Assembly: GCA_044892525.1 (NCBI GenBank)
Contig: CM097886.1
Location: forward strand, 31,496,001 to 31,560,000
Reading direction: 5' to 3'
DNA: 64,000 nt
From: Schmidtea polychroa
Taxonomy: Eukaryota
In this document: piece after piece, positions 8,020 through 30,100 of the stretch
Numbering within the stretch: position 1 is the first letter of the stretch
Layout: every line of letters starts with the position of its first letter
The notes under the pieces: model-generated
What the model was told of the DNA's origin: nothing
What the model saw: only the letters and a program-made list of their open reading frames with translations
The model's database searches: none
Position numbers and translations under genes: made by a program

Positions 8020-9363
8020 TTACTCCGTTCTACCCTTCTCCTCTTTCCTCACGGTCATCTTGATATATATGGTATCATTTCCTGTTGCTGATCCTTCTTC
8101 GTTGAGGGGCCTCTGGTAAGCTATTTGATTCCCCGTTGTTTTGAAGCTTTGCTCATGTATACTTTGGTTGTTCATCAGAGTAATATCGATTTTTGCCTGG
8201 AACGGCCATTCTAATATTTCGTCGTATTCTCCTTTACATAACAGAAAGAAAATCGAAAAGTGCGTATCCAATCCGGTTCCGTCCCCGTTGGGATATACCT
8301 TCATTTTCATTTTGTACCCATTTTTCCAAGAATGGAATGTAGGACTTGTTATTCTTGTCTCTTCTCCGGTTTTTGCTTTTCGTATTCTTTCTTTTACTCC
8401 CGTTATTTTCCATATGTAGGGTGCTGTTGGGGTTATCTCATTTAGATTTATTTCCCGTATTTTCTGATGTAGCTCCTTGGCCTGATTATTACTGATTTCT
8501 GTTCGGTTTATTTGCATCTTTATGTTTGCTCGGGCTTCTTCGAACGCTTCCCTTTCTTCTAGTAGTTCTTTGACTAACACTTTCAACGATGTTATCTCTA
8601 TCTCCATTTGTTTTACTTTCTCTTCGCTTTCTTGTAGCGCAGTCGACCACATTTCTGCGTGAGTTGAAGCATTTTCTACTAAATGATGTGGTAACTCACC
8701 TCGGTGTAGTAGTTTCTGACAACCCCATCTACCTAGTACACATGTCATTCTTTTCTTTGCGCATTCCCTTAGATGCTGTGCCACCTTCATTATTTCCCCT
8801 TGGTTACATCCGTTTGGGCATTCCCCACTGAACTCTGCACATACTCTCTCCTCTTGGACATTGTGATGTTTGAGGGTGAGATTTATCCACGTATCTATTT
8901 CTCCACAGTGTTCACATCTTTCCAATCTCTCTTCACACTGCCTTTGATGCTCTTTTTCTTCGCTTGCTCGAATGGTTTTATGGCACCTTTCACACTGGCC
9001 AATTCTGTACATACATTCTCCCATATGTTGTACTACCTTCCATATTACTCCTTTCCATTCGCATGGGGCATTTTTGCATCCCAGGTTGGTGTTTAACATG
9101 TCTTTCACTGCGGCTTTATCCTCGTTAGTGTCTTCTAAACTCGATATTAGTGTCTCTTTACACACCGGGCACCTCTGTGGTCTATTCTTTATTGCTTCAC
9201 TGATACATTCTTTACATACTCTGCATCCACATTGCGTTTGGTGAGGTTCCTTTAACAACTTTTCACATATTCCGCACATAACATGTTTGTGTATTCTGAT
9301 CGTTGTAGATTTTCGGACTTGCTCGACAATCTCTCTGAACTCTTCTCTTTGTCGTTTATCCAT
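8020..9363 (-). CDS. Intronless TRAF-family protein (RING, TRAF zinc fingers, coiled coil, MATH)
   Basis: CGICEKLLKEPHQTQCGCRVCKEC...CPVC; CKNAPCEWKG; CEHC; CPNGC; YIWKI...SPTF...GYKMKMKVYPNGDGTG..THFSIFF....GEYDEILEWPF. The MATH C-terminus looks shortened. Confidence 0.93.
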   Translation of the reverse strand: MDKRQREEFREIVEQVRKSTTIRIHKHVMCGICEKLLKEPHQTQCGCRVCKECISEAIKNRPQRCPVCKETLISSLEDTNEDKAAVKDMLNTNLGCKNAPCEWKGVIWKVVQHMGECMYRIGQCERCHKTIRASEEKEHQRQCEERLERCEHCGEIDTWINLTLKHHNVQEERVCAEFSGECPNGCNQGEIMKVAQHLRECAKKRMTCVLGRWGCQKLLHRGELPHHLVENASTHAEMWSTALQESEEKVKQMEIEITSLKVLVKELLEEREAFEEARANIKMQINRTEISNNQAKELHQKIREINLNEITPTAPYIWKITGVKERIRKAKTGEETRITSPTFHSWKNGYKMKMKVYPNGDGTGLDTHFSIFFLLCKGEYDEILEWPFQAKIDITLMNNQSIHEQSFKTTGNQIAYQRPLNEEGSATGNDTIYIKMTVRKEEKGRTE

Positions 9364-9448
9364 TCTATAATTATATGTACAAATAGTTCTTATCGATACA
9401 GGTTCGATATTTTATTTACAATTATTTACATTTTAAGCTAGGTTTGGT

Positions 9449-9808: not shown

Positions 9809-9968
9809 TCCTAATTTATATACACTTTTCAACTCTTATGTAAATTTAATTTTATTTTATGATTCCCGTTATTGTATAATATTGATACCGCGCTTATATA
9901 GAGATATAGTACTGTTATATACATAAGATATACTTACTTTTTACAATTATATACAGTCATATTCCTTT

Positions 9969-12900
9969 CTATATACGTGAGTTTGGAGGGCGCTGAACGT
10001 TCCAGGCCTCCACCCACTGTCCTTGTTTGATATCACTTGGTCGTTTCACTCGATGTTGGAAGTTTCTGATTCGGGTCATTTCTAGTTCTCCGCGATGTCG
10101 TTTATCTTTAATTATTTTTATTGTTCCCCCCGTTATGATTAGGAATGCCCCTGTTATTATTATCCCACTGATCCACATCATCTGCTTCACGCTTATACTC
10201 TCTGGTTTTTCCTTGTTGGTTAATGTTGATATCGCTTCTGTACTTTTCTCGTTTCCTCTTTTGCCATTTCCTTTCATCATTTCCCGTATTCTTGCTATTT
10301 CCTCGTTCATACCCTCCTTTGCCATCTTTTGTATTTTTTCCATCTCTTCCTCCGAAACATAGTTGTCCTGAGCTTCCTCACCAGTTTTCTTGTGCTTTCC
10401 TCCTTCGTTCTTTTCGTCGTGGTTTTTTCTTTTCTTTCCTCTTTTCCCCGGGTATCGTCGGCATTCTCTTTTTGATTCATTCCTCCAGATACAAACCGTG
10501 TATTCTTTCGGCGGCTGCTGCTGCGTCACATATTGATGGCATCTCTCACCTGGTCCTAATCTTGAAATACAGACTTTGTGCTCTTTTCTAGGTTGGATCT
10601 GCGTTATTACTACTTCACCACCTTTTCCTAGGTGTACCTCTTTTCCTTTGACGTTCGTTATTCTCTTCCCGTCTCGATTTCGGTATGCTTCTTGTATTCT
10701 TACTTCTGTTATTGGTTCTGTGTCCTCATTTATCAGTACTAATTTCTGATACGCTCTAGACATGCATCTTCCTAGTATGCACTTTTCCTTTAAGTCCCAT
10801 TCTTCCTTTAAATCCCACTGCTGCTCTTGTGCTTGCTTTCTCTTTTCTTGTTTTAGTTCATCCTCTTTGCTATCTTGATTCTCCGCTTCTTTGGTTTCTT
10901 TTATCGTTCTCGTCCCTCCCTGAGCTGTTACTAACTCTATCATGGTAAGCATAATTATCATTAATATCATATTTGTCTCTATTTCTTTGTTAGTGAAAGG
11001 TAGGCATACCCTCTGTTTTCCATTATTCGATTTTTCCTCCTCTTTGGTCTTGGTTCTCGGGCTGTTTCCCTCTCTTTTCGTATCCGAATCCTTGTTTTCT
11101 GGTTTACCCTCCTCCGGTTCTCTTTTCTCTTTATCCTCCTTTCGGTCTTTTCCGTTATTGTCATCGTGTTTATCTCCCTCGCTGTCATTTAAAATGTCGT
11201 CCTCGACATTTATATCGCTCAATAATCTGCGATATGCTGTTAGCACTCTGTTTCTTGCTAATTTTGCTTCGAATTCAAACTCTTTTCTACCCGTTGCAGC
11301 ATGTCTCTTTCTATTCCATTCTTTAACTAACTCTCTCAATTGCATACGACGATGTTTCCCAATTCGTTGTTGCTCGTTCTGATTTTGCGTGAATTTTAGG
11401 TCTTCTCTATTTAATACTATTAAAATAATTTTAGGCGTCCCCCCCTTAGTTAGGGTATTCTTTACCATCGCATTTTCTCCGTTTTCGTAGAATTCGTTTA
11501 CATTTATCGCATATTTATTATTTGGTGGTACTCTCCAGGTTAATAATAATTTCATTGCTTCTAGATTTTTCCGTACCGTATTCCATTGAAACTGAGATGT
11601 GTTTTTGCACATATTTTCAACTTCTTCTTCTGTCGCATTTTTGCAAATAAATCTGATCATTTCTAAGTTTGGCTGTATGGTTGCCCAGTCCAAGGTGGAA
11701 TTTCCTTCATTGGACCTTTCGTCTAGTTTCGATCCTGATTGATGTAGGATGTGGAGTGTTTTTGGGTGTATTTTCGTTATAGCTGCATACATCATGGCGG
11801 TTTCACCTTGTTCATTTTTCGTGTTGGTTTCCTCGCCCATCTCCCCAAGGATTCTCATGATCGTTATTGCTCTATTCTCTTTTGCAGCTAGTATTGCTTG
11901 TTGTAGGGGTGTTCGGGAATCCTTCGTTACCATCGTAAATGCTCGAGGCAAGAAGGTTTTGATTTTCCCGATATCTAAACCCGTGGTTTGATCTCTTGCG
12001 TATGTGTGTACGGCTTTTATTATTTTGGACAATATTATTTCGTCTGGCAGCTCTAGCATTTCCTCAAAGAACACTTCTTTTGCTTTGCGTATTATTGCCT
12101 CTTGATCTATACTCATTGATTTGGTTTCGATGACGTTGTTTGTGACCGTTCGGTTCGTTGTTGACTTTGATTCCCTGGATTTCTCATACCTTATTTTCGT
12201 TTTCTTTCCGTTTGGATTATTGATTCGTTCCTCTGCTGTAAGTATTTGGATAATATCCATGTAATTCTCGCGGATGTTATTCATCGTGTCCATCATATAT
12301 AACACACTTACTGTTTCCCAATATTTATGTCGTACTTGGTTAGTAAATTGGAATAGTGATTTTTCGAATGTGTCGATTCGCTTTTTTGTTAACTGTTCGT
12401 CTTTGTGATTTGTGAATTTTATCCCTCGTTCTAGTAATTGATTCGGGATTTCGAATAAATGATGTCCTTTCATAGCTTCTCTCATCAGCGTGTTCTCTCC
12501 TCTCGTGAACGCTTCGTTTACGTTGATCATATAATCGTTTCGAATTGGATTTCTCCATGTAATTAATATTCCGGTAATTGTCGTCAGTTTTTCTTTGATC
12601 GCTGTTAGCAATCCATCATACATGTTTCCGACTTCCCGATTGTCCTCATATGATAGTAGTTCCATCAATGACGTGAACGCCTCGGTACTTCTCCCTCTGA
12701 TAGCATGATGTAGAGCGTTTTTCCGCTCGTGGTCTTGTGTAGTTATTTTCGATCCGGTATCGAGTAATGCGGTTATAATGTCTTTTGTTTTGCCTCTGTT
12801 TGCGGCCATCATTAATGGTGTGTAACCTTGGTTGTTTGTTTGTTCTGTTGATCGCTTGCAGTCGTGAAATGCTTCTATTGTTTCTAGTATTTGCTCGTTG

Positions 12901-15900
12901 TTACCTACTTTCATGAGTTTGTGTAATGGTGTGTCTCCGTAATGATCTGTTATTGTAAATAATATTGGCCATTGGCTTTTGACTACTCGCAATAATGGGT
13001 GTGTCCTTTCTCTATTTGCATAGTTCTCGATCATCGTCAATAATCCTCCTAATATTTCGAAATCTAATCGATCTTTCGCCCATCCAGGTATTTTAATTTT
13101 TACCTCTTTTACAATCTTTTCCGCTTCTGATGGTTGGATACCTAATCGTCCAGTGATCGGTTCTGCGAGTTGTTGCATCATGTTCATTCGGTAGGTTTGC
13201 GAACGTGTGGTTAATGTACGGCCTTCTGGTTGACTAGTGGCTGTTTTTGGAATTGATTTGCATCGTGCCACGTTTACGTATATTGGTCTGGTAAAGGGGT
13301 TATTTACCAATTTCACTCTTACATTAGTTTCGCCTACGAATAAGATCTCATATGGTCCTTTTCCGTTGCGTTGTAACTTTTTTGTGGTTCCTGGAATTAA
13401 TTCCGGGGTTTCTATCATTACCCAATCACCTGTTTGGAACGTATGTTGCTTCACGTTTTTCTTTCGATCGTGTAAATCTTTATAACTTTCCTGGTAGAAC
13501 TTGATATTTAATCCCGCAGTTTCCCAAATTTCTTGCATTCTTTCCTTGAATTTCGTAACATAATCATCGATCTCCATATACTGCGATATCGGTGGTTGGT
13601 ATTCCAGGTCCATTGGCATATTACATTCTCTTCCGTACATTAATTTGAATGGGCTCATTTTCGTTGATGCGTGAATCGACATTCTGTACGCCATAAGACA
13701 TAGGTTTATATATTCGTCCCAATCTCGTTGGTGACGGTCAACGTAGTTTGATAACATTTGTATAAGTGTTCCATTAAATCTTTCCGTCATCCCATTGGTT
13801 TGAGGGTGGTATGGAGATGTTCTTAGTTTTGCTATTTTGAAGTAATTTGTTACTTCGCTCATTATCTCACTCATAAAATTTGTTCCCTGATCGGTTAAGA
13901 TTTGTTTTGGTGTTCCATATCGGCAACATATCTCTTCTACCAAAATTTTTGCGATTGTTTTAGCTTTTTGGTCTGGCATCGCGAATGCTTCTGGGAATTT
14001 CGTAAGAAAGTCTGTGATCACCAGAATGTAAACGTTTCCTTTATCTGACTCTGGTAGTGGACCAACTACGTCCATGGATATCATTGTCATTGGTTCTATT
14101 GGTACTGGCATTGGCGTTAAAGGTGCTTTCCATTTCGATCCCGTATTCTTCCTGGTTGCACAAGTTAGACAATTTTTTACCCATTCGGTTACATCTTCCG
14201 TTAACGTAGGCCAAAAATATTTCTGTTTCATTCTTGCTAACGTCTTTTTCGATGACATATGTCCTCCCAATCTCCCATCGTGATATTGCGTTAGTAACTC
14301 TTTTCGTCGGTTTTCCGGTATACACATTAATCGTTTTTCCCCATCCATTATCAGCAACCAATCTTTCTCTATAATATATCGGTGTCGGTGTTTATCCATA
14401 TGTTCTTTTAATTTTTGGTCTTTCGCATATACATCTGTCTGTCCGGTTTTTATATAATCGATAATTTGTTTTAATTCCGCGTCCTCTTGTTGGTCCTTTC
14501 GCAATTGACAGAAATCCAAATCTTCCGCTACTATTAAGCATATGCGTTGCATTTCTGAATCCACCAAATCTGGGAAAATAAATCTTGACATACAATCGGC
14601 GTTGGCATTTGCTCTTCCCGCTTTAAATTTTATAAATGGGGAGTATTCTTGCAATTGCATGGCCCATCTCATCAGTCTACTGGACGCTTCTTTATGTTGC
14701 CCTAACCACACTAATGGTTGATGGTCTGTGGTTATGCATATCTCATGTCCCCATAGTAAATATCGGAAGTGTTTGATAGCTTGTATTATAGCCAATGCTT
14801 CTCGTTCTGTTACCGAATAGTTCTTTTCGTGCTTTTTGAATGTTCGACTGTAATACCCGATTACTCTCTCTTTTCCCTCATCGTCCAATTGTCCCAGAAT
14901 CGCGCCTGCCGCGTACCCGCTTGCATCCGTTGCCAATAGAAATGGCTTCTTAAAATCTGGGTGTACGAGGATAGGTGCTTCGATTAGTTTGTCTCTCAGC
15001 GTTTCAAACGCCTCTTGTTGTTCCTTCCCCCATAAGAACGAAATGTCCTTCTTTACTAATTCCTGGATTGGTTTTGCAATTCCTGCATAATTTTTGATAA
15101 ATTTGCGATAGTATCCGCATAATCCTAGAAATTCCTGAACTTGGGTGACAGTTTTCGGTGCTGGACATGTTTTTATTTTCTCAATGTTTCTTGGATCTGG
15201 CTCCTTTCCTTTAGCTGACACTATGTGTCCTAAAAACGTGACTTTTTCCTTTGCCCAATCGCATTTTGATGGTTTGAGTTTGAGTTTCCACTGTCTTAAT
15301 CTAATAAATACGTTTCGGATATCTTCTAGATGTTGTTCAAATGTCGCTGAATAGATTAGTAAATCATCAATATATACCATACATTGTTTGATTCCATGGG
15401 TGACAAAGTTCATACACCGTTGAAATGATGCTGGTGCGTTAGTCAGTCCAAATGGCATTTTCCTGAATTGATATAGATCTCGTCCCAACGTGAAAGCTGT
15501 TTTCTCTTTGTCCTCATCTTTGACTTTAATCTGCCAGTATCCACTTTTTAGATCTAAAGAAGTAAAATATGCTGCCCCTTGCAACATCAATAACATCTCA
15601 TTGATGTCCGGCAATGGATAGGTATCTCTCTTGGTCACTGCGTTTAACTTCCGATAATCGATACAGAATCGTTGGGTGCCATCTTTCTTTTTCACCATGA
15701 CCACTGGGAATTGCCAGGGTGAGCAACTTGGTTCGATTACTTTTGCGTCTAGCATCTTTTGTACTTCTGTTTCGGCTATTTCTTTCTGCATTTCTGCTAG
15801 CTTGTATGGTCTCAATGCAATTGGGGTTTCGTCTATGAGTGGTATTGCATGTAAGGTAACATCACATGTACCCAAGTCTAAATCTGAGATGGCGAATATA

Positions 15901-18900
15901 TCTTTATATTCTACCAACAATCGGTGCAATTTTTTCTTTTCGTCATTCGTCAACAACATACTATCTATTGTCCATAATTCATCATCTTTGATCATCTCGT
16001 TGGTCACTTTCGGTAATTCTATGTCCATCATTGGGGTCAATCTTCCCAATTTTTCGTTCTCATAAATGATTTTGTCTTCCTCTTCAAAATTCGTGATGTT
16101 GAGCGGTATCACTCCTTCTTGGTTTATTGTGATTATTTCTCTTGCGAGTGGTAATTCTCGTCGCTTTTCAAATGACTTGCTTGGTTCAAAGATAACTTCT
16201 CCTTCCATACCCGTATCCACTTTTATCTGACAAATCATCTGTGATTTTGCTGGTACTATTATTTTTTCTGGACATCTGATGACTGCATTCATTTTGCATA
16301 TTCTACCGGTTTTGTCTTTTAAACACATGGTTGTTAAGTCAATTACGACTTCTTTTAACAATTCTGGCATCAAATCCGTTCCGATTATGCATGGTACGCT
16401 AAGTTTTGGTATTACTGCCAAATACGTTTCAATTTCGTTGTCCTGGTATCTCAATGTAGTCCACCATCTTCCGACCACGTCCACTGTTTCTTTACTACAT
16501 GCTATGATGTGAATTGTTGTTGATTCGATATCCTTCCAGTGTTTACTGGGGATTTGATTAATCGCTATCGCTGATACATTAGCTCCGGTGTCTATCATAG
16601 CATTGGTTTCTTTACCATTGATTTGAATCATAACTGTTACTGCTGGACCTCCAGGTAAACTCATCGCTGCTATTGTTCTTACGTCATCTGCTTGATCTAC
16701 ACTTTTGGTACGTCGTGTTGGCATATAATGCATACCGGGTTGACTCGGTAATTGCGGATACATATTTTGTGTCATGGTCAAAGCTGTTTGTGGTCCCACG
16801 ATATCCGGTGGTATATAGCTTCCATTGGCGATCCAGGTGTTTGTCTTTTCCTTTTCCCAATATGGTGCCGTTTCCATTGGTTTTTCGTTTGGGTTTCTGT
16901 TTGGATAAAGACATTTATCGTTCCCGTTATCATCGTCGTCACTATCGCTGTTAGATGATTGGCTTCTAAATCGGTCCAAGAATTTTGGCTTATTCTTTTT
17001 CAATTGTCGTCTTGTTGCTTCATCGTACATTACTTTCCGGAATCGTCTGCCTACTTCCTCGTCGGTTCCTTTAATCTTTGTTAATATTTTAATCAATCGC
17101 TTTATCCGATGAATGTCTTTTGAGTGGCCATGTAATACCATGGTCTTAGCTAAAAATGGTAAGAAGCCTACTATCATTTTCCAATTAACTTTCTTTTCCC
17201 GCTTGTATATATCGAAACAAGCTAACATTTGTGTTAGTATTACTCTGACTATCTGAATTATGAGTATGATCCCTAATATCCCGGCCATCATTTGTCCAAA
17301 AACTAAGAATCTTCCCCACATTGCTTTCATCATGTTTGACGTAGCTTGTTGAAAATGGTCTGGCGATAATAGCAGCTCGTAATTCGGGCCTGATTGATAG
17401 TTTGTGCCCCCAGTTATTGTTACCATATTAGACAAAATGGATTCTCGTCTGGCTGGGAAGAGTACGTTAAGTCGTGCTGTTTCTAGATCTTCTGGGGAAT
17501 ACATACCACCGTTTGACACGTCTATAGGTTTGAAATCCAGCTCTGTGGCGAGTTCTATTAATCCAAATTTCTTGGGCTCCTCGGATATGGTTTTTCCCGG
17601 TAACATCATCCATTTCCCATCGGGCCTTTCATATAAAGGTCCGTATGCATTAGAACAGTTAAAGAGATTTGGGTAGAAACCCACTGGATTCATAATTCTA
17701 GTGACTGGTTGGACGAATCGATTTTGTCCTTTATAACGGATTTCTAATTCATTTGCACATCTCTTTTCGGGTAGTATGGATTTTTCTGGCATTCGTGCAT
17801 ACGTCTTGGTACACTGGTATGTGTACATCACTTCTCCTACCATTCTACCAAAGTGTCCATCTGGTAATGGGAGTGATGGCATCGTGTTATCTGGGTGCGT
17901 TATCGCAATAGCTAGCTTTGTTTTCAATATTTCTTTATTCAATGAACAATCGTTTTGTATTAGATCGTAATATACTTTTTGCAAGGTCGTTTGTCCGCGA
18001 TGAAATAGAAAATCCATTTTATTATTTGCATATAAGTATAGTTTTACGTCCTCCGTTGCTATCTTTCCCACTGCTCTATCGATTATTTGTCTCGACATAT
18101 AGATACCTGCGTAATTGGTTTTATATACTATACTGTCACATTTGGTGGTTTCTTTCTCTTTGATAAATCTCATACCTAGATCTGGATCGTCTGTGATTAA
18201 TGCTGTTGGTGTCTTCTGCGTTGAAAGTCTCTTTTCTCTGGGAGATGGTGGCATTGGTTTTCCATTTCGCATTCTCACTCTGTCGTTTCCATCCTCGTCG
18301 TTCTCGTTCTCATATATTTCTCCTTTTACTTCATTGAACAAAGCACTTTTTAACAGTTGGAGTCGGCATTTTTGGGTATTAGCTTCATAGATTATAGTTG
18401 ATACTCCTGTCCTGCATACGTTTTCTGTAGCTCTACACGTTGGGTTGGTCTTCATTTGGTAATTATTTGCGTCAAATTGCGCTTCGTATTCTTTTAATTC
18501 GACCGTGTAAGACTCGATCACTACAACTCCCGATATTACCTCGCCTCGGATCGTATACGTACCTCCGTTACATGACCCATCTGATGATTTTACTTTTCCG
18601 GATACGTAAACACTTTCGGTTTTAATCATTCCAGTTTGTCCGTGAATTGTCACTCCGTTATGCATTTTTAGCGCTCCGGTTCTAAATAGTTCTTTACAAT
18701 CCTCTCGTTGTATTGATACGATTTCTTTATCCAGACCGGGTAGTATAAGAGTCGAATACGAATATTGTCCACAGTAATATGCGAGTACCTTTTTTGATAC
18801 TACGCATTCCCTTGCTTGCGTTCTGATGAAATCTGATTCTTGATATACATGGTAAGTAACTTTTGTTCTCACGATGTCCAATTTGTTGGGTGAGGCTTGT

Positions 18901-21900
18901 CTGCATTCTTCTATGTCTCTCAATGAGTATTTATCTCTCATTATCATATTATCACAATCGTAGATGGTAAAACCCGTTGCTCCACTTGTGCACAACATCC
19001 ATATCATCATAGTCATCATTAACGAATTTATTGATGCTTTTCTGCTTGCGGGATCTTTCATCGGTAGTTCCCATTCTAGTTCATTTAACAGTTTTTTCAA
19101 TCTAACTTGCATCGACCTTTCTTGCTCATTTTTCCGTGGCGCTTGTATCAGTCTTTTCCATCCTCCTGCACGAATAATGTGTGGTTCAATAGTATTCTCT
19201 ATGATTGAAACGGTCATTTCTACATGATTTGCAAACTGTTTATTTGGTATTTTCCTCGCAGCTAGTCCCATCAAATTATACATCAAATAAGTGATTACCA
19301 CTAGGTGATGCTCGTCATCATTTGCATTTGTCGTGAGCTGCTCAATCACTCTCTTTGTTTCGTCCCAATCCGTTTTGGTGGTTTTCGTTTTCTCTTTGAT
19401 TAACTTTGGGATTATCCCCGAAATGGTGTGCCATAATTGTCTAGCTTCCGTACTGGCTACTTTCCGTTGCCACAAACGTCTAAGTTGTGGGTTTGTTATT
19501 ATTAACATATCTTTTAACAATTCTCGTATCCATTTTTCTCCTCTTTCGATCGTTGGTTGGGCTTCCTTTAGATCCCATACTATTTTATCCAATTTTTCTA
19601 ATCGAACTTGCCCTTGTTCTTGCTTTAATTGTTCTTTGGTTTTGAACTCAGACTTTTCTCCTTGTTTCTTGGGTCTTCCTTTTGCCCGTTTTTCCATCAT
19701 CGTTCCGGCTTCTCTGGTATTTTCGTAATTCGGATTTCTTTCGTTATCCGTTCTGGGTAATGAGCTATCGTTATTTCTTAGCCACTCATTCCATTCGTCT
19801 ATTATTTTGTCGGTTTGACTTTCTGGTGTTACTTTCGTTGGTTCTCTTTGCTTCTGGAATTGTTCATCCGTTTCGGTTTCCGTAGTATTGTCGATGATTT
19901 CTTTGATGTTCAGTTTCGTTGGTTGTTGATAACTCGTTGATGGCTGGTTATTAGTCCACATTTCGGCTCCTGTCGGCCATCTCACTAATAGCGGTGATCT
20001 TTCTCCTGGTTCATCGTCACTATCTTCCAGGATTATCTCTTCAACTTCTTCAGTTTCATTAGATTTACTTGGTGCTTTGTTCGGACTTGGAGTACTCAAA
20101 CTGCCTTTTGTTGGTTTAATAATTTTACTTTTCCTTTTTAACGGTTTTCCCAACGTTTCTGCCATTGTTAATACATTTGTCTCTTCCAATCTCATGGGGG
20201 TTATCCCGACGTCTGCATTATCGTCTAGTGATTTTCCGAACAGTTGCAGATGGAATGGAGTTTCATATGCTAATTTCTTTTTTAATTCTCTAATTTTTGT
20301 TGTTGGATGCACCTCTAGTTCCTCGATGCTCTTGTCTGGATACTTGATTCGGATGTGATACCTCTCCTGGGTGTCTTGTGCCCATTCCTGATTTCTCCAT
20401 TTTCGAATAATTTGTTCTAGCTGTTCTGGATACCATTCATTATATTGCCGGTATTCCTCTATTGCCTTTGCCATTCCTCTCAGATTGTGGATGTCCTCTG
20501 ATGTCTTTAAGATGATGTTAGCCAACGCTACTACTTGGCGTCTTTGATTTTTCGCTCCCATTGCTAAGATATCGCCTAATTGTTTATATCTTTCTTTCTC
20601 TTCTCGTTCTCTTGCTTCCGTCGCTTCCTCGCCGTCCATATCAGCATATTCACGTTCCTTTTTCCTCATTGCATGAATATGTCTCGCTTCATTTTCGCTT
20701 TCTGATGTGACATCCGTCTCGCCTTCGTCATCTGATGTCTGTTCCCTTGCTTCCTCTTCATATTTTGGAGGTTCCTCTTCTTCTTCCTCCGATTCACTTT
20801 CTGTCTCACCAATGTCTGTTTCCACGAAGGTTCCTTTCCGGATTTCCCATTCCTTACTTTCTGCATTCCACACTCTTTCCCATGGGGTTCGTCTGCAGGA
20901 TCTGGTGCTTAATTTCGTGATTTTTCCTTGTAGTTCTTTTTCTTTTAACCATTGTTGGTGGATTTTAATTATTTCCGTAGATTTTTGATATAACGTTTTC
21001 ATCCGGTCTCGTATTTCTTTTTGATAGGTTACATCTCTTGTTCGAAATTCATCCATTGGTACTATCCTGATTATCTGGTGATTGTCCCACATACCCATTT
21101 CGCTTAACGAGGTGTCGTCCTCCGCTCGTAATATTATCTTATCGTACATCATGACTACATCATCCACCATACCATCACTACTTTCGCTACGTACCTTTTC
21201 CGTTATCTCTTGGTTTATTTTTGATACCAAGTCATCTACTGTACTCTGATTGCTCATTTTTATTCGTCGTTTTTCTTCGTTCGGTAACCATATGGTTATT
21301 TCCAACCTCTGTGGCTGGGTTTCTTTTAACCTTCCATATTTGTGGATCAAATTTATGGTTCTCCAATCACTCATTCGGAGCATTTCTGTATCTCGCAACC
21401 GGCTCATTAGTTCGTACATGGCTGGGGCTCGTCTGGTGATGAGTAAATCCCAGTTGTCTTCTACTTGTTCTTGAATTTGTTTGATCAGCTTATCCAGGTT
21501 TCGTCTCAGAGTACATTGTTTTATTTGTTCTAATTTCAATTTGATATTAAAATCATATTCTGCCTTGGCATCTTTAGCCCAATCGTAAAGGTTGGCTGGT
21601 TGTTTTTCTTTATGCAACTTCAGTATTTGCGTTTCTCCTGGCCATATTAGTGCATCTACTAAGTGCATATCTGGTTTGATCTGTTCTCCTTGGTATTGAT
21701 ACAGATATTCTTTCTTTCTCGAACTTCCCAAATGCTCTCGTATCCAATCGAAAAGTTCGTCGGTGACTGTATTTTTTATCCACATTCTTTCAAGTCCTCT
21801 ACTCGTTCCGATTTTTATTACATACCGCGTGGTATCGGCCTGCTTCATTTTTTCCATATAATTTTTTATAATTGATTTTTCCTCGTTTGGTATTAAATCT

Positions 21901-23822
21901 TTCTCGTTTCTTTCCAATTTCATCACTTTTTGCACGAATCGCCTGAATGGTATTACGTCAATGAACTCTTGGTTCCTCACTACTACTGGGAGTATTTCCG
22001 CTACTTGTTTTATCGCTTCCTCCTTCCCTTTTCTCAACTTTATTTCGATATCCTCGTCTTCACTTTCGCTGGTTATCTCGCTTTCGCCTTCTTCCTCTTT
22101 GATTTCCCCTTTTGGAGGTTCGCTTATTTCATTCAGCTGTAGTATTTCTCCACCCAAACTACTTACATAGTCTTCTTCCTCGTCTGACGATGCTACATCT
22201 TTTGTCCTTTTCATCATATTGATTTGCAAGTTTCTCATCCTTGGTACTCTCTTTAGTTTCTTTCTTTCGAATATCGTTGTTTCTTCTGATTCTAATTCCT
22301 GTAGCATTTGGTGGTTTAATTGACTGGTTTGTTCCTTGCTCTTGTTATTTTCATCTTCTGTCTCGGCTTTCGCTTTATTATGTTCTTTTTCGATTTTATC
22401 TTTTATCTTTTTCCAGAATATTTTCTGAATTCTCTGGTTTCCTTTTAAAATCGTGGTTGAATTCTCTGTTTTCATTTCCGTTGTTATTTCTTTTACCTTT
22501 TCTGGTTCAGTCATGGGTACTACCCTTGGGCTTTTCCCGTAATTGTAGCAATACTGGCTCTTCATGTCTTTTACTAACTTCATCATATTTATTCGCAATG
22601 GTTGTTCTTGTCGTTGTTGGTTGCGTTCTTGTTTTATCCTCTCTTCCTCGGCCTGTAGCCTTTGCCATTCTTGTACATGTTGATGCACTTCATAATTGTT
22701 GAGATTTTCGGTACTCCACATCATACGTATATTCTGGGTTTGTTGTGGTGCTGATTCTTGTCTTGGTCTCATCATTTGTTGCATCATCTGTTTCATCTGC
22801 GAAATTTCCTGCATAACGTTCATTTGTTTTCCTTCGTTAGGGTTACTTTGTCGTTGCGGATTCGCTATATAATTATTATTTCGCTGTGGTGGTCGTTGTT
22901 GTTGGCCCCTTTCTCGGCAATCTCTGGAGATGTGACCTGGCTGACCACAGTTAAAACAGCCTCGCAATTGGCATACATTTTCGGTATGTCCACGCCGTCC
23001 GCAACGATTACAATTTGAATTTCTATAACAATCTCTGTCCCAGTGTCCTGGTTTACCGCATGTTCGGCACTGCTTGTTATCGTTCATATTTCGTCGATTA
23101 TTGAAATTGTTCTCATTATTCGGGTTGTTACGATTACCATTATTCCCGTTTGATCGTCCTTGTGGTGGTTTGAAAATTTGGTGCGCTCCTGGTATAAATT
23201 GATTCATTTTCGGTTCTTGATTGTTGTTATCTCCGTTATCCGCTTTCGCTATTGCTGTCGCTATCCTTCCCTCCTCTTGCATAATATTCATTTGAGCTGG
23301 AAGGTGGAGCTCGCATCTTGTAGCCCAATCTATGGCTTCCTCTAATGTTTTGCACATTTGACAACCTACTGAGGCTCTTACTTCTTCTCGGCGTAATCCC
23401 TCTATGAAATAACCGATCAGATTTTCTTCGGGTAATTTTCCATTCATTGCTTTCTTCGCTAATCTCCGCAATTCACTGGCATATAATGTTATCGATTCGT
23501 TTGCTCTTTGTTTCCTATTTGCTAGTTCGCCCAACGCCTGGTTGATTGGCTTACTGGCTCCGAAGGTTTTCTTCAGGAATGTTTTAATATCTTCCCACTT
23601 TTCTAATTTCGTGTCTCTCTCTTTAGCTTCTAAATATACCTCTAATGCACTATCGCACAAAAACAACGGCATCCTTTTACTAATTGCTTCGGGTGTCCAT
23701 CCACACACAGTGATATAAACTTCAAAATTAGTTATGAACGATGCTAGCTTGTTTGCGTTTCCGTTGAAAGGTTCTCCTCTGAACTTCTCTTTATACTCGT
23801 CGGTTTTTACGACATTCGTCAT
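9969..23822 (-). CDS. 4,617 aa Gag-[accessory]-Env-PR-RT-RH-IN-ankyrin-membrane polyprotein
   Basis: Single stop-free ORF containing three CX2CX4HX4C knuckles, IDTGA protease, YIDD RT, TDAS RNase H, HHCC plus D,D(35)E integrase and ankyrin TPLH/TPLM motifs. Confidence 0.97.
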   Translation of the reverse strand: MTNVVKTDEYKEKFRGEPFNGNANKLASFITNFEVYITVCGWTPEAISKRMPLFLCDSALEVYLEAKERDTKLEKWEDIKTFLKKTFGASKPINQALGELANRKQRANESITLYASELRRLAKKAMNGKLPEENLIGYFIEGLRREEVRASVGCQMCKTLEEAIDWATRCELHLPAQMNIMQEEGRIATAIAKADNGDNNNQEPKMNQFIPGAHQIFKPPQGRSNGNNGNRNNPNNENNFNNRRNMNDNKQCRTCGKPGHWDRDCYRNSNCNRCGRRGHTENVCQLRGCFNCGQPGHISRDCRERGQQQRPPQRNNNYIANPQRQSNPNEGKQMNVMQEISQMKQMMQQMMRPRQESAPQQTQNIRMMWSTENLNNYEVHQHVQEWQRLQAEEERIKQERNQQRQEQPLRINMMKLVKDMKSQYCYNYGKSPRVVPMTEPEKVKEITTEMKTENSTTILKGNQRIQKIFWKKIKDKIEKEHNKAKAETEDENNKSKEQTSQLNHQMLQELESEETTIFERKKLKRVPRMRNLQINMMKRTKDVASSDEEEDYVSSLGGEILQLNEISEPPKGEIKEEEGESEITSESEDEDIEIKLRKGKEEAIKQVAEILPVVVRNQEFIDVIPFRRFVQKVMKLERNEKDLIPNEEKSIIKNYMEKMKQADTTRYVIKIGTSRGLERMWIKNTVTDELFDWIREHLGSSRKKEYLYQYQGEQIKPDMHLVDALIWPGETQILKLHKEKQPANLYDWAKDAKAEYDFNIKLKLEQIKQCTLRRNLDKLIKQIQEQVEDNWDLLITRRAPAMYELMSRLRDTEMLRMSDWRTINLIHKYGRLKETQPQRLEITIWLPNEEKRRIKMSNQSTVDDLVSKINQEITEKVRSESSDGMVDDVVMMYDKIILRAEDDTSLSEMGMWDNHQIIRIVPMDEFRTRDVTYQKEIRDRMKTLYQKSTEIIKIHQQWLKEKELQGKITKLSTRSCRRTPWERVWNAESKEWEIRKGTFVETDIGETESESEEEEEEPPKYEEEAREQTSDDEGETDVTSESENEARHIHAMRKKEREYADMDGEEATEAREREEKERYKQLGDILAMGAKNQRRQVVALANIILKTSEDIHNLRGMAKAIEEYRQYNEWYPEQLEQIIRKWRNQEWAQDTQERYHIRIKYPDKSIEELEVHPTTKIRELKKKLAYETPFHLQLFGKSLDDNADVGITPMRLEETNVLTMAETLGKPLKRKSKIIKPTKGSLSTPSPNKAPSKSNETEEVEEIILEDSDDEPGERSPLLVRWPTGAEMWTNNQPSTSYQQPTKLNIKEIIDNTTETETDEQFQKQREPTKVTPESQTDKIIDEWNEWLRNNDSSLPRTDNERNPNYENTREAGTMMEKRAKGRPKKQGEKSEFKTKEQLKQEQGQVRLEKLDKIVWDLKEAQPTIERGEKWIRELLKDMLIITNPQLRRLWQRKVASTEARQLWHTISGIIPKLIKEKTKTTKTDWDETKRVIEQLTTNANDDEHHLVVITYLMYNLMGLAARKIPNKQFANHVEMTVSIIENTIEPHIIRAGGWKRLIQAPRKNEQERSMQVRLKKLLNELEWELPMKDPASRKASINSLMMTMMIWMLCTSGATGFTIYDCDNMIMRDKYSLRDIEECRQASPNKLDIVRTKVTYHVYQESDFIRTQARECVVSKKVLAYYCGQYSYSTLILPGLDKEIVSIQREDCKELFRTGALKMHNGVTIHGQTGMIKTESVYVSGKVKSSDGSCNGGTYTIRGEVISGVVVIESYTVELKEYEAQFDANNYQMKTNPTCRATENVCRTGVSTIIYEANTQKCRLQLLKSALFNEVKGEIYENENDEDGNDRVRMRNGKPMPPSPREKRLSTQKTPTALITDDPDLGMRFIKEKETTKCDSIVYKTNYAGIYMSRQIIDRAVGKIATEDVKLYLYANNKMDFLFHRGQTTLQKVYYDLIQNDCSLNKEILKTKLAIAITHPDNTMPSLPLPDGHFGRMVGEVMYTYQCTKTYARMPEKSILPEKRCANELEIRYKGQNRFVQPVTRIMNPVGFYPNLFNCSNAYGPLYERPDGKWMMLPGKTISEEPKKFGLIELATELDFKPIDVSNGGMYSPEDLETARLNVLFPARRESILSNMVTITGGTNYQSGPNYELLLSPDHFQQATSNMMKAMWGRFLVFGQMMAGILGIILIIQIVRVILTQMLACFDIYKREKKVNWKMIVGFLPFLAKTMVLHGHSKDIHRIKRLIKILTKIKGTDEEVGRRFRKVMYDEATRRQLKKNKPKFLDRFRSQSSNSDSDDDDNGNDKCLYPNRNPNEKPMETAPYWEKEKTNTWIANGSYIPPDIVGPQTALTMTQNMYPQLPSQPGMHYMPTRRTKSVDQADDVRTIAAMSLPGGPAVTVMIQINGKETNAMIDTGANVSAIAINQIPSKHWKDIESTTIHIIACSKETVDVVGRWWTTLRYQDNEIETYLAVIPKLSVPCIIGTDLMPELLKEVVIDLTTMCLKDKTGRICKMNAVIRCPEKIIVPAKSQMICQIKVDTGMEGEVIFEPSKSFEKRRELPLAREIITINQEGVIPLNITNFEEEDKIIYENEKLGRLTPMMDIELPKVTNEMIKDDELWTIDSMLLTNDEKKKLHRLLVEYKDIFAISDLDLGTCDVTLHAIPLIDETPIALRPYKLAEMQKEIAETEVQKMLDAKVIEPSCSPWQFPVVMVKKKDGTQRFCIDYRKLNAVTKRDTYPLPDINEMLLMLQGAAYFTSLDLKSGYWQIKVKDEDKEKTAFTLGRDLYQFRKMPFGLTNAPASFQRCMNFVTHGIKQCMVYIDDLLIYSATFEQHLEDIRNVFIRLRQWKLKLKPSKCDWAKEKVTFLGHIVSAKGKEPDPRNIEKIKTCPAPKTVTQVQEFLGLCGYYRKFIKNYAGIAKPIQELVKKDISFLWGKEQQEAFETLRDKLIEAPILVHPDFKKPFLLATDASGYAAGAILGQLDDEGKERVIGYYSRTFKKHEKNYSVTEREALAIIQAIKHFRYLLWGHEICITTDHQPLVWLGQHKEASSRLMRWAMQLQEYSPFIKFKAGRANANADCMSRFIFPDLVDSEMQRICLIVAEDLDFCQLRKDQQEDAELKQIIDYIKTGQTDVYAKDQKLKEHMDKHRHRYIIEKDWLLIMDGEKRLMCIPENRRKELLTQYHDGRLGGHMSSKKTLARMKQKYFWPTLTEDVTEWVKNCLTCATRKNTGSKWKAPLTPMPVPIEPMTMISMDVVGPLPESDKGNVYILVITDFLTKFPEAFAMPDQKAKTIAKILVEEICCRYGTPKQILTDQGTNFMSEIMSEVTNYFKIAKLRTSPYHPQTNGMTERFNGTLIQMLSNYVDRHQRDWDEYINLCLMAYRMSIHASTKMSPFKLMYGRECNMPMDLEYQPPISQYMEIDDYVTKFKERMQEIWETAGLNIKFYQESYKDLHDRKKNVKQHTFQTGDWVMIETPELIPGTTKKLQRNGKGPYEILFVGETNVRVKLVNNPFTRPIYVNVARCKSIPKTATSQPEGRTLTTRSQTYRMNMMQQLAEPITGRLGIQPSEAEKIVKEVKIKIPGWAKDRLDFEILGGLLTMIENYANRERTHPLLRVVKSQWPILFTITDHYGDTPLHKLMKVGNNEQILETIEAFHDCKRSTEQTNNQGYTPLMMAANRGKTKDIITALLDTGSKITTQDHERKNALHHAIRGRSTEAFTSLMELLSYEDNREVGNMYDGLLTAIKEKLTTITGILITWRNPIRNDYMINVNEAFTRGENTLMREAMKGHHLFEIPNQLLERGIKFTNHKDEQLTKKRIDTFEKSLFQFTNQVRHKYWETVSVLYMMDTMNNIRENYMDIIQILTAEERINNPNGKKTKIRYEKSRESKSTTNRTVTNNVIETKSMSIDQEAIIRKAKEVFFEEMLELPDEIILSKIIKAVHTYARDQTTGLDIGKIKTFLPRAFTMVTKDSRTPLQQAILAAKENRAITIMRILGEMGEETNTKNEQGETAMMYAAITKIHPKTLHILHQSGSKLDERSNEGNSTLDWATIQPNLEMIRFICKNATEEEVENMCKNTSQFQWNTVRKNLEAMKLLLTWRVPPNNKYAINVNEFYENGENAMVKNTLTKGGTPKIILIVLNREDLKFTQNQNEQQRIGKHRRMQLRELVKEWNRKRHAATGRKEFEFEAKLARNRVLTAYRRLLSDINVEDDILNDSEGDKHDDNNGKDRKEDKEKREPEEGKPENKDSDTKREGNSPRTKTKEEEKSNNGKQRVCLPFTNKEIETNMILMIIMLTMIELVTAQGGTRTIKETKEAENQDSKEDELKQEKRKQAQEQQWDLKEEWDLKEKCILGRCMSRAYQKLVLINEDTEPITEVRIQEAYRNRDGKRITNVKGKEVHLGKGGEVVITQIQPRKEHKVCISRLGPGERCHQYVTQQQPPKEYTVCIWRNESKRECRRYPGKRGKKRKNHDEKNEGGKHKKTGEEAQDNYVSEEEMEKIQKMAKEGMNEEIARIREMMKGNGKRGNEKSTEAISTLTNKEKPESISVKQMMWISGIIITGAFLIITGGTIKIIKDKRHRGELEMTRIRNFQHRVKRPSDIKQGQWVEAWNVQRPPNSRI
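11460..12950 (-). other. Two ankyrin-repeat modules C-terminal to integrase
   Basis: GDTPLH, GYTPLMMAA, KNALHHAI; RTPLQQAI, GETAMMYAA, GNSTLDWA. Both modules end in related LITWR..INVNE..GEN segments. Confidence 0.85.
13300..14300 (-). other. Integrase (HHCC, DDE, GPY/F-like)
   Basis: HDGRLGGH...CLTC, SMDVVGP, TDQGTNF, QTNGMTERFN with D-35-E spacing (13890 to 13782), and KGPYEI. Confidence 0.97.
14580..15900 (-). other. Reverse transcriptase and RNase H
   Basis: RFCIDYRKLN, LDLKSGYWQI, MPFGLTNAPASFQ, YIDD (15363-15374); TDASGYAAGA, EREALA, TDHQPL, ANANADCMSR. Confidence 0.98.
16350..16650 (-). other. Retropepsin aspartic protease
   Basis: AMIDTGANVS (DTG at 16584-16592) and IIGTDL. Confidence 0.95.
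17150..19037 (-). other. Envelope glycoprotein (class III, gB/chuvirus-G-like) embedded in the polyprotein
   Basis: Hydrophobic signal (SLMMTMMIWMLCTSGATG), then YDC..SL..C..YCGQYS, a Cys-rich ectodomain of about 550 aa, furin-type REKR (18228-18239), GRMVGEVMY..C..C.NEL...PVTRI, and a TM helix (WGRFLVFGQMMAGILGIILIIQIVRVIL). Confidence 0.8.
19146..19620 (-). other. Bcl-2-family-like domain within the polyprotein
   Basis: ...RVIEQL...LVVITYLMYNL...IEPHIIRAGGWKRLI aligns by eye to Bcl-xL VVNEL...IVAFFSFGGAL...LEPWIQENGGWDTFV, with 56 vs 55 residues between the L and GGW. BH1 NWGR is not conserved. Confidence 0.7.
20160..20361 (-). other. Ubiquitin-like domain within the polyprotein
   Basis: YHIRIKYPDKSIEELEVHPTTKIRELKKKL...LQLFGKSLDDNADV follows the beta-grasp Ubl pattern (LEV.P..TI..LK.KI...L.F.GK.L.D). 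Two weaker Ubl-like segments lie at about 21058-21310 and 21610-21825. Confidence 0.65.
22917..23069 (-). other. Nucleocapsid with three CCHC zinc knuckles
   Basis: CRTCGKPGHWDRDC, CNRCGRRGHTENVC, CFNCGQPGHISRDC. Confidence 0.95.
23300..23800 (-). other. Ty3/gypsy Gag capsid domain
   Basis: PFNG...FITNFE...W...KTFLKKTFG...RKQRANESITLYASELRRLA...FIEGLR...TLEEAI pattern typical of retrotransposon Gag. Confidence 0.85.
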
Positions 23823-25129: not shown

Positions 25130-25759
25130 TTACGACTGGCTGGCACTATTCAACAGCTCAATCTTCTTCCTTCTGATCGGTTAGACTATTCAACAACTCG
25201 ATCTTACGACTGGCTGGCACTATTCAACAGCTCAATCTTCCTCCTTCCTGATCGGTTGGACTTTTCACAACTCGACCTTACGACTGGCTGGCACTATTCA
25301 ACAGCTCAATCTTCTTCCTTCTGATCGGTTGGATTATTCAACAACTCGATCTTACGACTGGCTGGCACTATTCAACAGCTCAATCTTCCTCCTTCCTGAT
25401 CGGTTGGACTTTTCACAACTCGACCTTACGACTGGCTGGCACTATTCAACAGCTCAATCTTCTTCCTTCTGATCGGTTGGACTATTCAACAACTCGATCT
25501 TACGACTGGCTGGCACTATTCAACAGCTCAATCTTCCTCCTTCCTGATCGGTTGGACTTTTCACAACTCGACCTTACGACTGGCTGGCACTATTCAACAG
25601 CTCAATCTTCTTCCTTCTGATCGGTTGGACTATTCAACAACTCGATCTTACGACTGGCTGGCACTATTCAACAGCTCAATCTTCCTCCTTCCTGATCGGT
25701 TGGACTTTTCACAACTCGACCTTACGACTGGCTGGCACTATTCAACAGCTCAATCTTCT
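25130..25759. repeat. Tandem array of 8.5 x 74 bp units alternating two variants (148 bp higher-order unit)
   Basis: Units start TTACGACTGGCTGGCACTATTCAACAGCTCAATCTTC at 25130, 25204, 25278, 25352, 25426, 25500, 25574, 25648 and 25722 (partial). A units end CTCGATC and B units end CTCGACC. Confidence 0.95.
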
Positions 25760-26339: not shown

Positions 26340-26825
26340 TCATTCGCCATAATAGACCATATGGGTCTCTTTTATTTCATATTTGCACATCGTGCATCTT
26401 TTTAGGTCTTTTACACACTCTTCACAGTGACTGAGGTGTCCACACGGCAAGAATAATACGCGAATAGGACGGAGTTTGCAGGCTATACAAGTTCGTAATT
26501 GGTTAACTTTTTCCTGTATTTTTTGTTCGATTGCATCTGGTATTGTATTTAGTGAGTCTTTTAGACGCTGATAATCTAGATTTAATGTTGGGTGGTTCAA
26601 TCTCTCTTGATACCACTGATATACGGTTTCGGGGTTTATTTTTCCATCTGGGCGACTTAGGCCTGTGGCTAATATCATATGATTAGGTACGACTGGTGTT
26701 TGTCCGATTGCTTGCAGTAATATCGCGTTGATTTTTTCTCTTTTATGCGTCAGTGTTGTTAGGGAGTCGTTTTCTATATCGATAAACTTGAGCAGTTGTT
26801 GCATTTGGTTCGCGAATTCTGTCAT
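26340..26825 (-). CDS. 161 aa protein with C-terminal IAP/MYLIP-type C3HC4 RING (putative E3 ligase)
   Basis: CIACKLRPIRVLFLPCGHLSHCEECVKDLKRCTMCKYEI at the extreme C-terminus. Acceptor-like TTTTCCAACAG lies 2 nt before the ATG, with AATAAA at 26191-26196 (minus). Confidence 0.85.
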   Translation of the reverse strand: MTEFANQMQQLLKFIDIENDSLTTLTHKREKINAILLQAIGQTPVVPNHMILATGLSRPDGKINPETVYQWYQERLNHPTLNLDYQRLKDSLNTIPDAIEQKIQEKVNQLRTCIACKLRPIRVLFLPCGHLSHCEECVKDLKRCTMCKYEIKETHMVYYGE

Positions 26826-27142
26826 AGCTGTTGGAAAAGTAATGTTTTAATAATATGTAGTAAATTAATAGTTAATTCGTTAATTGGTTTCTTTAACCAT
26901 TGTTAATTATTTAATTTGACTACTTTATCTCCTTTATTTATATATATCCTTAATTTTTCTATTATCTACATTTTGATTTTCTCTACTTAGTTCCTAATAT
27001 AATTTAATAATCAATAGTCACTTTGCATTCGTCAAGCAATGGTCGGTTGAAAATAGAAAATCGATGTGATAAATCCCTTTAATTTTGTATGAAACTCCCG
27101 GTGAATTTCGCATTCGTTAATAGAAATTTCGATCGACTGTAG

Positions 27143-27160
27143 ATCCCGGCTGAGCCCCCA
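27143..27160 (-). promoter_or_regulatory. Primer binding site, tRNA-Pro type
   Basis: Minus strand reads TGGGGGCTCAGCCGGGAT, 7 nt inside the 5' LTR end. This is 16/18 identical to the classical tRNA-Pro PBS TGGGGGCTCGTCCGGGAT and complementary to a tRNA end ...ATCCCGG-CTGAGCC-C-CCA. Confidence 0.85.
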
Positions 27161-27167
27161 AAAATCA

Positions 27168-30100
27168 TGTTGGGGTTACACCTCGGCTGACCATTCTACC
27201 ATGTTGGCGGGTCTAAGGGTTGATTGTCCATCTCGAATAAAAGGTGCCACCGATTTGTCAACCTGGAGTGAAACCCCACATAACTTTCTTCCAACATAGT
27301 GCCCGTGAATCACTTCACGTTGGTACTGCACTATGCAGGCGAGACGCCAGCAAGCAGGTGAGCTTCTGCCTTAAAACTACTCCTTGCTGAGGCCTCGACT
27401 TCCCATTCACGACTGCCGATAGAAGGGCTTACGTCCATTTCCTTACACAACCACCTATCAGGATTCGCTGAATGCAAATTGGGAAATTCTCACTAGATCT
27501 TGCGGGTTCTCTACTCAACCCACTTAATTAAAGTCTAATTATTCATGAACGAAAACGTGTAAGACAACAAGATTTATTAATTTCAACGTTATGACACAAG
27601 GATTCAGCTGTACACTTTACTAATGTTTGTCGAAAGAAGAGAAAACATCATAATCAACATAGATCGGATCCTTGTTCCCCATCCTGACCGCCACTGGGGT
27701 TTTATTGTTTCTCCCATTCAGTGTCGGCGAATAATTCGTCGAGGTTGAAAAACTCGGAAGCGTTCTCTTCCCACCTTACGCCAGCGGCTGATATGATTCG
27801 CGCTGAGGGTCCCGTTGTTAGGTCGATGGACACGTGAGAGTTGCCACCGTTGGTTGAGTCCTCTATTGATGGGATGTTTGGCTTTGCAGTAGCGCGCTCG
27901 CGCTGTCTCTTCTTGCGCTCTGCACGAGAGAGTTGTTTACGCTTGGGTTTGCTTGAAGATGCCACTTGCAGAAGGGTGACTGATACAGATGGACTAGCAG
28001 TGGGGGGCTTACTGGTACCCGTGATGACAACGTCTGGACGCTTGGGGGACCATTCGGTTTCGACGCAGTCTCGGCACGGTCTCTTGAACGGTGGAGATGG
28101 ATTCGAGGAAAGGTTGTGATGAGGCGGAAAGATGTCATCGGCCTCTCGGATGGGAATCTGCACGATTTTTCGGGTTGTAGCCGCCTGCACGTAAACCTTA
28201 TGCAGTGCCTCGGATTGTTCTCTGATTAGACTTCTTTGGGCGCGGCTCTCAGATATTAGCGCGTCCCGGCAATGCTCGCTACGATCGAGCTTCTTTTGGA
28301 TCTCTTTCATCCGAGCGGGACTAAACCATGTCCCTTCCAGCTCGTCTATCTTCCTCTTGTAACGTCCAATCTGAGTTTGTAGGTCCTTTATCACCGTATT
28401 TTTATCCGCGCACGAGAAGCACGGCCGTAATGCCGATTTAGTGGTTGGTAGCATGCTTGCTATAAATAATACTAATGAAATGGAGAACATACGATTTTAG
28501 AATAAATTAGATACGACCCGCGTCCATTCGTGGATACTTGACCGTCGAAAAGAAGGAAAACTTATTCTACAATCCGGCTTTACTACGGATCTTAGTTGTT
28601 AAAACAGTTTATTTAACCAAATGCCATCGGCTTGACGCATGTTATTAACTTTGACTATCTATTGATCTAACTGTATGCATGAGGGACGTAATAATTGATA
28701 GGGTGTAAATATAATATTGGTGAAATAATATAATAATACTTTAGTAGAGGGACATTATAGTATGCGACCAAACCTTGCTATATGTTATCTATTTTAATTT
28801 ATTAAAAACAAATTACTATCGCTCTCAACATATTTTTGATTCGAAATTTGTTATTGGAAGTGCACTTTTAATTCGGTAGGGAATGTGATTATCTATATTG
28901 TCTACCATTGGTCTGAAAATATGTGATGAGTTTACATCAGCCATTACTTTACCACCCTCATGGAAAATCCCATCGGTCATAACATATCCAAATTTACGGA
29001 TACTGCTGTCGACTGGTTGATTACATTATCGACCTATTGTGAATGTCACGTGTCGCGACTACTATGTATGCTAGTCTGATATTCTGTGCTCTCACCGCAT
29101 GGATTCGTGTATGGCTACTATCTTATCTCACTCACTTGGTGTATGCCATTTTCACGGTGATTTTATCGATCCTGCTGTTGTATGATTTTCTCTGCACAGT
29201 GATTTATTTGAGTTATGATTTATGCTACCGCCAGTTCTCATCGCGGAATTTTACCCTTATCAACTTGTGTGAATGATCACCATCGTTTGGAAATTTATTG
29301 GATCTTTTCAGTGATCGTCGAGGGAATAATTCTACCAAATACTGGAGCATATTACTACTCTCGTCATTCTACTCGGATTTGCCTATTCAGATGTAATGCC
29401 GTCTCGATGAAACCTGTCCTTTTCTCTCAGGTTCAATAATTTGGATATATACAGAGATGACCTGGCTCTTATTGTAGAAATAAATGTTATTAATTAAATT
29501 TGGTGATATTTTACCTGTTTATAATTTTTGAAATAACTAAGTCTATAAAAACTTTCTGATTATAATACTAGAGAGGTTTTCGTAGAATCTCGCATTTTAT
29601 AGTTTCGAGTTAGTTAAAGTTTTTAGAATACTTTCGTAACTTGACATACAATCTGGACAGGTTAGATGACATTGGGTCTATGATAATGGAATTTCATACG
29701 AATTTAGTTCTACTGAGTCCGGCAAATAGACGTTGTCGCAATTAATTTGATAAACCCATGTTTCCAGATGAAGCGTACTATGAGATGTTGTTATTTTTGA
29801 CGAAGTTCACTAAATCGTGGTCTGGATCTCTTTTTTCAATAGGGGTAAGACTTACGAAAACGACTTGACGAAAGAAGAATGCGACGCCCTTAATCACTGT
29901 GCAAATCCTTGAAAATCCCTTCATTCGTATGACTATCTTTGTGAAATCATTGTCTACCGGTTATTTTTTATCCATACCCCATTGTGATAATTTAGTCGCA
30001 TCTTCAGCGATAGGACCCGTGAAGAAGCCTTCACATTTCGGCCCAATCTAGCTGCGCGATTGAAATACTCCATGTCCACCGGCTGAGCTCCCGAAGGCAC

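Follow-up and report, generated by a model that had tools for sequence, protein, structure and literature searches.

Planarian Burro elements carry env in frame between gag and pol, an arrangement termed the first such case and reported from two planarian genera (PMC6431247). Elements with GAG-ENV-POL order and an Env of the glycoprotein B (gB) type are described from nematodes, bryozoans and flatworms, including six in Schmidtea mediterranea, Smed_errantivirus_1 to Smed_errantivirus_6 (PMC13524379, citing Sacco 2022). Here, we analyzed a 64,000-nucleotide stretch of Schmidtea polychroa (assembly GCA_044892525.1, contig CM097886.1, positions 31,496,001 to 31,560,000, forward strand; hereafter the window), which holds a giant Ty3/gypsy element with Env in the middle of its polyprotein. 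An original prediction, made by a model that saw only the letters and their translations, implied that gag-env-pol in one chain was new. The in-frame internal env is real and unusual, but it was already published for Burro (PMC6431247) and gB-type elements (PMC13524379), and Atlas virus also has a single chain (PMC9094657). Our analysis adds a class III assignment for this family from a structure model, codon comparisons that indicate selection on Env, and a putative topology with two membrane cassettes.

One Reading Frame through Gag, Env, and Pol

As predicted, a single frame runs through gag, env and pol without a stop or frameshift (Table 1). It encodes, in order, Gag, a Bcl-2-like segment, a signal-like segment, Env, a transmembrane (TM) helix, protease, reverse transcriptase (RT), RNase H, integrase and ankyrin repeats. 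Gag carries three CCHC knuckles at amino acids (aa) 252-302, and the YxDD motif of RT is YIDD at aa 2817.

An Env search of the same genome gave 2,862 candidates, of which 70, ranked by Env identity and including the window copy, were scored. The Env region matched at about 100% and was stop-free in all 70 copies; 46 of them shared a 4,732-codon frame, and 69 kept a frame of at least 2,900 codons. Because these copies were ranked by Env identity, we added a second sample of 27 copies, out of 79 ranked by RT, that the Env-ranked list lacked. There, env was collinear in 27 of 27, and 19 copies were unbroken over 5.6 kb. Seven had stops or indels (four within env, at differing places) and one had a 50-base unaligned stretch; no break fell in the signal or the Env-to-protease tail of any of the 27. 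Env is under purifying selection. Across the RT-picked copies, the ratio of nonsynonymous to synonymous changes (pN/pS), counted as distinct codon changes relative to the window copy and not as events on a tree, was 0.06 for env, against 0.08 for protease-RT and 0.13 for the flanks. A pN/pS of 0.01 from 30 Env-ranked copies was set aside as biased by the choice of copies.

The fusion is not confined to one copy. At least two further env-bearing families in the genome (L031-L064), with Env identity of about 33%, also encode these domains in this order within one frame; in one of them a 3,334-codon frame recurs, and broken copies are more common. Among 22 database relatives, chosen mostly for length from the best 150 of 1,061 matches, 11 place a fusogen ahead of an aspartyl protease in one chain, three of these with an upstream Gag or zinc knuckle. 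The element itself is young and intact, with identical long terminal repeats (LTRs) and dozens of near-identical full frames. With this youth and an Env under constraint equal to that of the protease-RT region, the family is well suited to studying how such elements are expressed and whether Burro elements may form enveloped particles that move from cell to cell. Knock-down of PIWI increases BURRO1 RNA (PMC8532177).

Env as a Predicted Class III Fusogen

The span singled out by the original prediction corresponds to aa 1596-2225 of the polyprotein. The motifs it named are present (YDC at aa 1621, CGQYS at 1684, GEV at 1996, TRI at 2041), and the Cys-rich ectodomain it described is borne out by 16 Cys within aa 1591-2219, together with one N-glycosylation sequon. 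Pfam Monjiviricetes_fusion (PF24664) matches the Env region with expectation values (E) of 1.5e-72 and 5e-70 and had matches in none of 14 control genomes. Single-sequence input gave a pLDDT of 33 in AlphaFold2 and 0 matches in a search of solved structures, and a 100-sequence alignment was used instead. The resulting model had a mean pLDDT of 89.2 and a pTM of 0.70, with a gB-like multi-domain fold and a long central helix at residues 311-358.

Foldseek against chuvirus glycoprotein (G) and gB, the check proposed with the original prediction, returned fusogen-fold matches. The best predicted ones were chuvirus-like glycoproteins (Tacheng tick virus 4, E 6e-37; TM-scores up to 0.71), and the solved structures among the matches listed were all herpesvirus gB (pseudorabies gB, E 7e-13, TM-score 0.45). 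VIA aligned 418 residues of the model with gB of herpes simplex virus 1 (HSV-1) at Z 10.2 and a root-mean-square deviation of 6.9. An Env profile without structure matched gB weakly (E 0.005). By its match to both chuvirus G and herpesvirus gB, the modelled Env is a class III fusogen of the gB/chuvirus-G type, in agreement with the earlier call. A shared fold by itself does not establish membrane-fusion activity.

A class I Env (retroviral or F-type) was rejected, as the model is class III and a furin motif occurs in just one of 13 fused Envs. Elsewhere among homologs, Ig domains are fused ahead of a gB-type fusogen (P0140), and six relatives (P0001-P0004, P0008, P0015) apparently have at least two aspartyl-protease-like domains past Env.

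Predicted Membrane Segments and a Second Cassette

The signal-like segment, the TM helix and the protease DTG all lie where the original prediction had put them, the last 211 aa beyond aa 2200. A hydrophobic stretch occurs at most 30 aa ahead of YDC in 16 of 16 fused or long chains, and four of four stand-alone homologs have an N-terminal signal at the same spot relative to YDC. Small residues occupy positions -3 and -1 relative to F1618, and we infer that signal peptidase would cleave before this residue. On the other side of Env, all 10 chains displayed, of 11 tried, conserve the TM helix together with a flank that is basic or amphipathic. Past the basic flank lies a weaker, conserved amphipathic stretch (aa 2212-2230). 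Because it scores poorly as a TM segment on an insertion scale, Pol is most likely back in the cytosol. A putative internal signal followed by a stop-transfer helix is thus well supported by comparison.

The Pfam match of the Bcl-2-like segment is under the cut-off (E 0.025-0.063), and a 4-sequence profile matched Bcl-xL with E 0.003 over 35 positions. A BH2-like GGW lies 48-82 aa ahead of YDC in 6 of 16 chains; from this spacing, the Env signal would occupy the position expected of a Bcl-2 tail anchor.

After integrase, a second signal-like segment and TM helix appear in all five chains long enough to judge (the window copy, L061:602-1730 (-), P0001, P0006 and P0014); P0016 was left out of this count, its chain ending just past integrase. 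At L061, a locus of a sister family, this cassette matches fibronectin-III weakly in the Atlas, at 0.92 with recognition under the threshold, and shares 36-38% identity with the version of L063/L064. The window copy's second cassette had no Pfam or Atlas assignment, and it showed no BLAST similarity to those of other families. A separate 222-aa open reading frame (ORF) at window 5182-5850 (-) also has the look of signal, ectodomain and TM helix, its signal Met-rich like both polyprotein signals.

Proposed Working and Rival Explanations

The element is a Burro-type giant Ty3/gypsy, placed by published description, with a gB/chuvirus-G-type Env as one domain of its polyprotein. We consider it likely that it works as follows. 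Gag would be synthesized in the cytosol until aa 1598-1617, acting as an internal signal, dock the ribosome at the endoplasmic reticulum (ER). Signal peptidase would release the Env N-terminus at F1618, and the ectodomain would fold on the luminal side. Transfer would halt at the helix spanning aa 2169-2200, which would leave the enzymes from protease to integrase, and the ankyrins, back in the cytosol, to be released there by the protease of the element itself. The cleaved signal would remain as the C-terminal anchor of the upstream piece, beside the Bcl-2-like domain. Near the C-terminus, the second signal and TM helix would make a second pass and yield another small surface protein. Env may coat membrane-budding particles and allow entry into other cells by class III fusion, a step suggested by fold and selection only.

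A fuller version, to which we give slightly less than even chances, has the polyprotein pass four times through the ER membrane. In it, the Env signal would double as the tail anchor of the upstream Bcl-2-like piece, Pol would form a loop in the cytosol with a luminal glycoprotein on either side, and the second cassette would be a fast-changing surface protein, possibly an attachment partner of the fusogen. This topology is absent from the literature searched and possibly unreported; the text on Burro in PMC6431247 makes no mention of an internal signal, topology or second membrane cassette, and the signal or the cassette may already appear in earlier Burro descriptions and figures. A two-cassette topology, if true, would mean that a retroelement relies on a membrane-threaded polyprotein instead of splicing and frameshifting.

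Several points weigh against the proposed working. The ER threading foreseen by the original prediction keeps its segments, supported by comparison, but the signal core of this family is among the weakest, with a best 10-residue mean of 2.0 against a range of 1.92-3.67 in 16 fused relatives. With such a core, some chains may escape the ER. On the insertion scale, the Env signal ranks third among the segments, and the topology is drawn from hydrophobicity and comparison. The predicted furin-type site REKR does exist, at aa 1862, but it is not conserved: R-x-[RK]-R occurs in this Env only, 12 of the 13 fused Envs being without it, and a family-wide furin site was rejected. In gB-type Envs, too, the furin site is not conserved in every case (PMC13524379). 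The Bcl-2 assignment is weak even at its best E of 0.003, and the match to Burro was made by published description. Finally, the ectodomains of gB-type Envs are bounded in some cases by a signal and a TM and in others by two TMs (PMC13524379), and the segment before Env may therefore be an uncleaved anchor.

In that case Env would remain attached to the Bcl-2-like piece, its two ends both in the cytosol, and its role would lie in internal budding or cell-to-cell passage and not in free particles. The distance from GGW to YDC in the 6 chains that have it places the segment as a tail anchor would be. The small residues at -3 and -1, a YDC spacing like that of stand-alone homologs with N-terminal signals, and a hydrophobic core short for a stable TM all speak for cleavage, and we regard the uncleaved anchor as quite improbable. 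Less remote, though still unlikely, is that spliced or internally initiated RNAs predominate in the cell (for Gag alone, Gag-Pol without env, or Env from a Met cluster at aa 1602-1609), with the full chain minor and the ratio not 1:1:1. Five Met residues do open the Env signal, and at least three downstream accessory ORFs require some sub-genomic route in any case. Selective Pol turnover is another way around a 1:1:1 ratio. In the gypsy element Cer1, gag exons are spliced to an ORF further downstream to give a distinct protein (PMC10309623). Against this stand env borders free of stops and indels in the 27 RT-picked and 30 Env-ranked copies, fusion retained in families only about 33% identical, and a crude scan that found no pyrimidine-rich acceptor right upstream of the signal. 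No env-skipping joint was among the joints listed for contigs of four sequencing runs over window 5000-24900, whose RNA origin was guessed, a result that does not bear on splicing. That the window copy alone is fused, through faulty assembly or a mutation of its own, has next to no probability: nothing was found in its favor, and it is contradicted by the 4,732-codon frame in 46 of 70 copies, the other families, Env before protease in 11 of 22 relatives, and publication from two planarian genera (PMC6431247).

Element Structure and Other Features of the Window

The LTR element totals 29,896 bp (29.9 kb) on the minus strand, with an internal region of 22.2 kb. Self-BLAST paired 1111-4955 with 27165-31009 with a single mismatch at 1113; because this falls outside the TG start, the LTRs proper are identical. 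A 4-bp target-site duplication (1110-1113 and 31010-31013) flanks the element. This TG...CA LTR pair and the protease-RT-RNase H-integrase order mark it as Ty3/gypsy; a BEL/Pao identity was rejected. The 18-mer next to the 5' LTR appears to resemble a tRNA-Pro site, and no tRNA genes were found in the window.

Table 1. Features of the Element, with Positions in the Window and aa Numbering of the Polyprotein
Feature	Position	Strand	Details
5' LTR	27168..31009	-	3,842 bp, TG...CA ends; self-BLAST
3' LTR	1114..4955	-	TG...CA ends; self-BLAST
Primer-binding-site-like 18-mer	27143..27160	-	immediately internal to 5' LTR; read from sequence
RING accessory ORF	26340..26846	-	upstream of polyprotein; PF13920 E 4e-11
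Gag-Env-Pol polyprotein ORF	9969..23822	-	4,617 aa, zero internal stops
Gag	22917..23669	-	Retrotrans_gag PF03732 E 6e-10, aa 52-145; PF00098
Bcl-2-like segment, BH2-like GGW at end	19158..19373	-	aa 1484-1555; weak; GGW 68 aa before YDC
Internal signal-peptide-like segment	18972..19037	-	aa 1596-1617, hydrophobic aa 1598-1617; predicted cut after A-T-G, before F1618
Env ectodomain, predicted class III fusogen fold	17343..18971	-	aa 1618-2160; PF24664, AlphaFold2, Foldseek, VIA
REKR furin-type motif	18228..18239	-	low-confidence model loop; unconserved
Env TM helix (predicted)	17223..17318	-	aa 2169-2200 (hydrophobic to 2206); then basic residues
Aspartyl protease	16359..16634	-	aa 2397-2488, DTG at 2411; PF00077 E 2e-9
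RT, RNase H, integrase (Ty3/gypsy order)	13803..15695	-	aa 2710-3340; Pfam
Ankyrin repeats, two blocks	11649..12899	-	about aa 3642-3721 and 4019-4058; PF12796 E 1e-16
Second signal-like segment, ~250-aa spacer, TM helix	10125..10970	-	signal aa 4285-4300, TM aa 4548-4566; hydrophobicity scans
TRAF-like accessory ORF (RING + MATH)	8020..9411	-	downstream of polyprotein; PF21355 E 2e-23

A tandem array with a 74/148-bp period (window 25130-25759) lies in the element's 5' untranslated portion. Each LTR contains a 264-codon ORF that opens with a signal-like stretch (1648-2442 and 27702-28496, both (-)), and two accessory ORFs of 258 and 370 aa at window 5891-7884 (-) are rich in coiled coil; none of these had a confident Pfam match. 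Outside the element, window 43691-45063 and 46517-47463 hold an imperfect palindrome of 1.4 kb and a minisatellite, AT-rich, with a period of ~41/115 bp. A 765-codon ORF at 58521-60818 (+), with no Pfam match, gives the impression of a DNA-transposon transposase.

Comparison with Known Systems

Env resembles chuvirus G and herpesvirus gB in fold and Cys pattern, at 17-21% identity to chuvirus-like G and about 10% to gB; unlike it, those are stand-alone genes with an N-terminal signal. In flavivirus-type polyproteins, internal signals and stop-transfer helices route parts of one chain into the ER lumen. The resemblance to the proposed working is an analogy only, and no homology is claimed. Atlas virus (Belpaoviridae, hookworm) likewise holds Env inside one Gag-Pol-Env chain without stops or introns, but it is BEL/Pao and not gypsy, its Env has a class II fold, and because that Env comes last, no enzyme must re-enter the cytosol after it (PMC9094657).

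Burro and GYPSM1 as described in PMC6431247 are the model for our placement. Shared traits are a length of about 30 kb, a long internal region (up to 25 kb in Burro), one ORF (4,600-5,100 aa in Burro), a retrotrans_gag domain with three CCHC knuckles at the N-terminus, env in frame between a BCL2-like part (weak here) and protease, and ankyrin and MATH/TRAF cargo. The ubiquitin/SUMO-like domain that precedes BCL2 in Burro is below the cut-off here (PF00240, E 0.0065). Its dUTPase-like domain between protease and RT, found by HHpred in PMC6431247, and its BIR have no Pfam match in our element. TRAF/MATH is a separate downstream ORF here, whereas in two described cases it lies within the polyprotein or upstream (PMC6431247). 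Burro Env has mononegavirus-type glycoprotein matches and was linked to gypsy Env and to paramyxovirus and baculovirus fusion proteins (PMC6431247), while the Env here is modelled as class III.

With the HSV/gB-type errantiviruses of PMC13524379, the element shares gene order, a gB-type Env and multi-copy occurrence in flatworms. They are described there with three ORFs, in an account that does not discuss single-chain translation. The Env row of Smed_errantivirus_2 agrees, by eye, nearly letter for letter with a second family of our genome (L039, L054). The closest listed row to the Env of this element is Smed_errantivirus_5, at about 55% identity by eye over some 130 residues (PMC13524379), and the element therefore probably represents a sister family of the described Burro elements.

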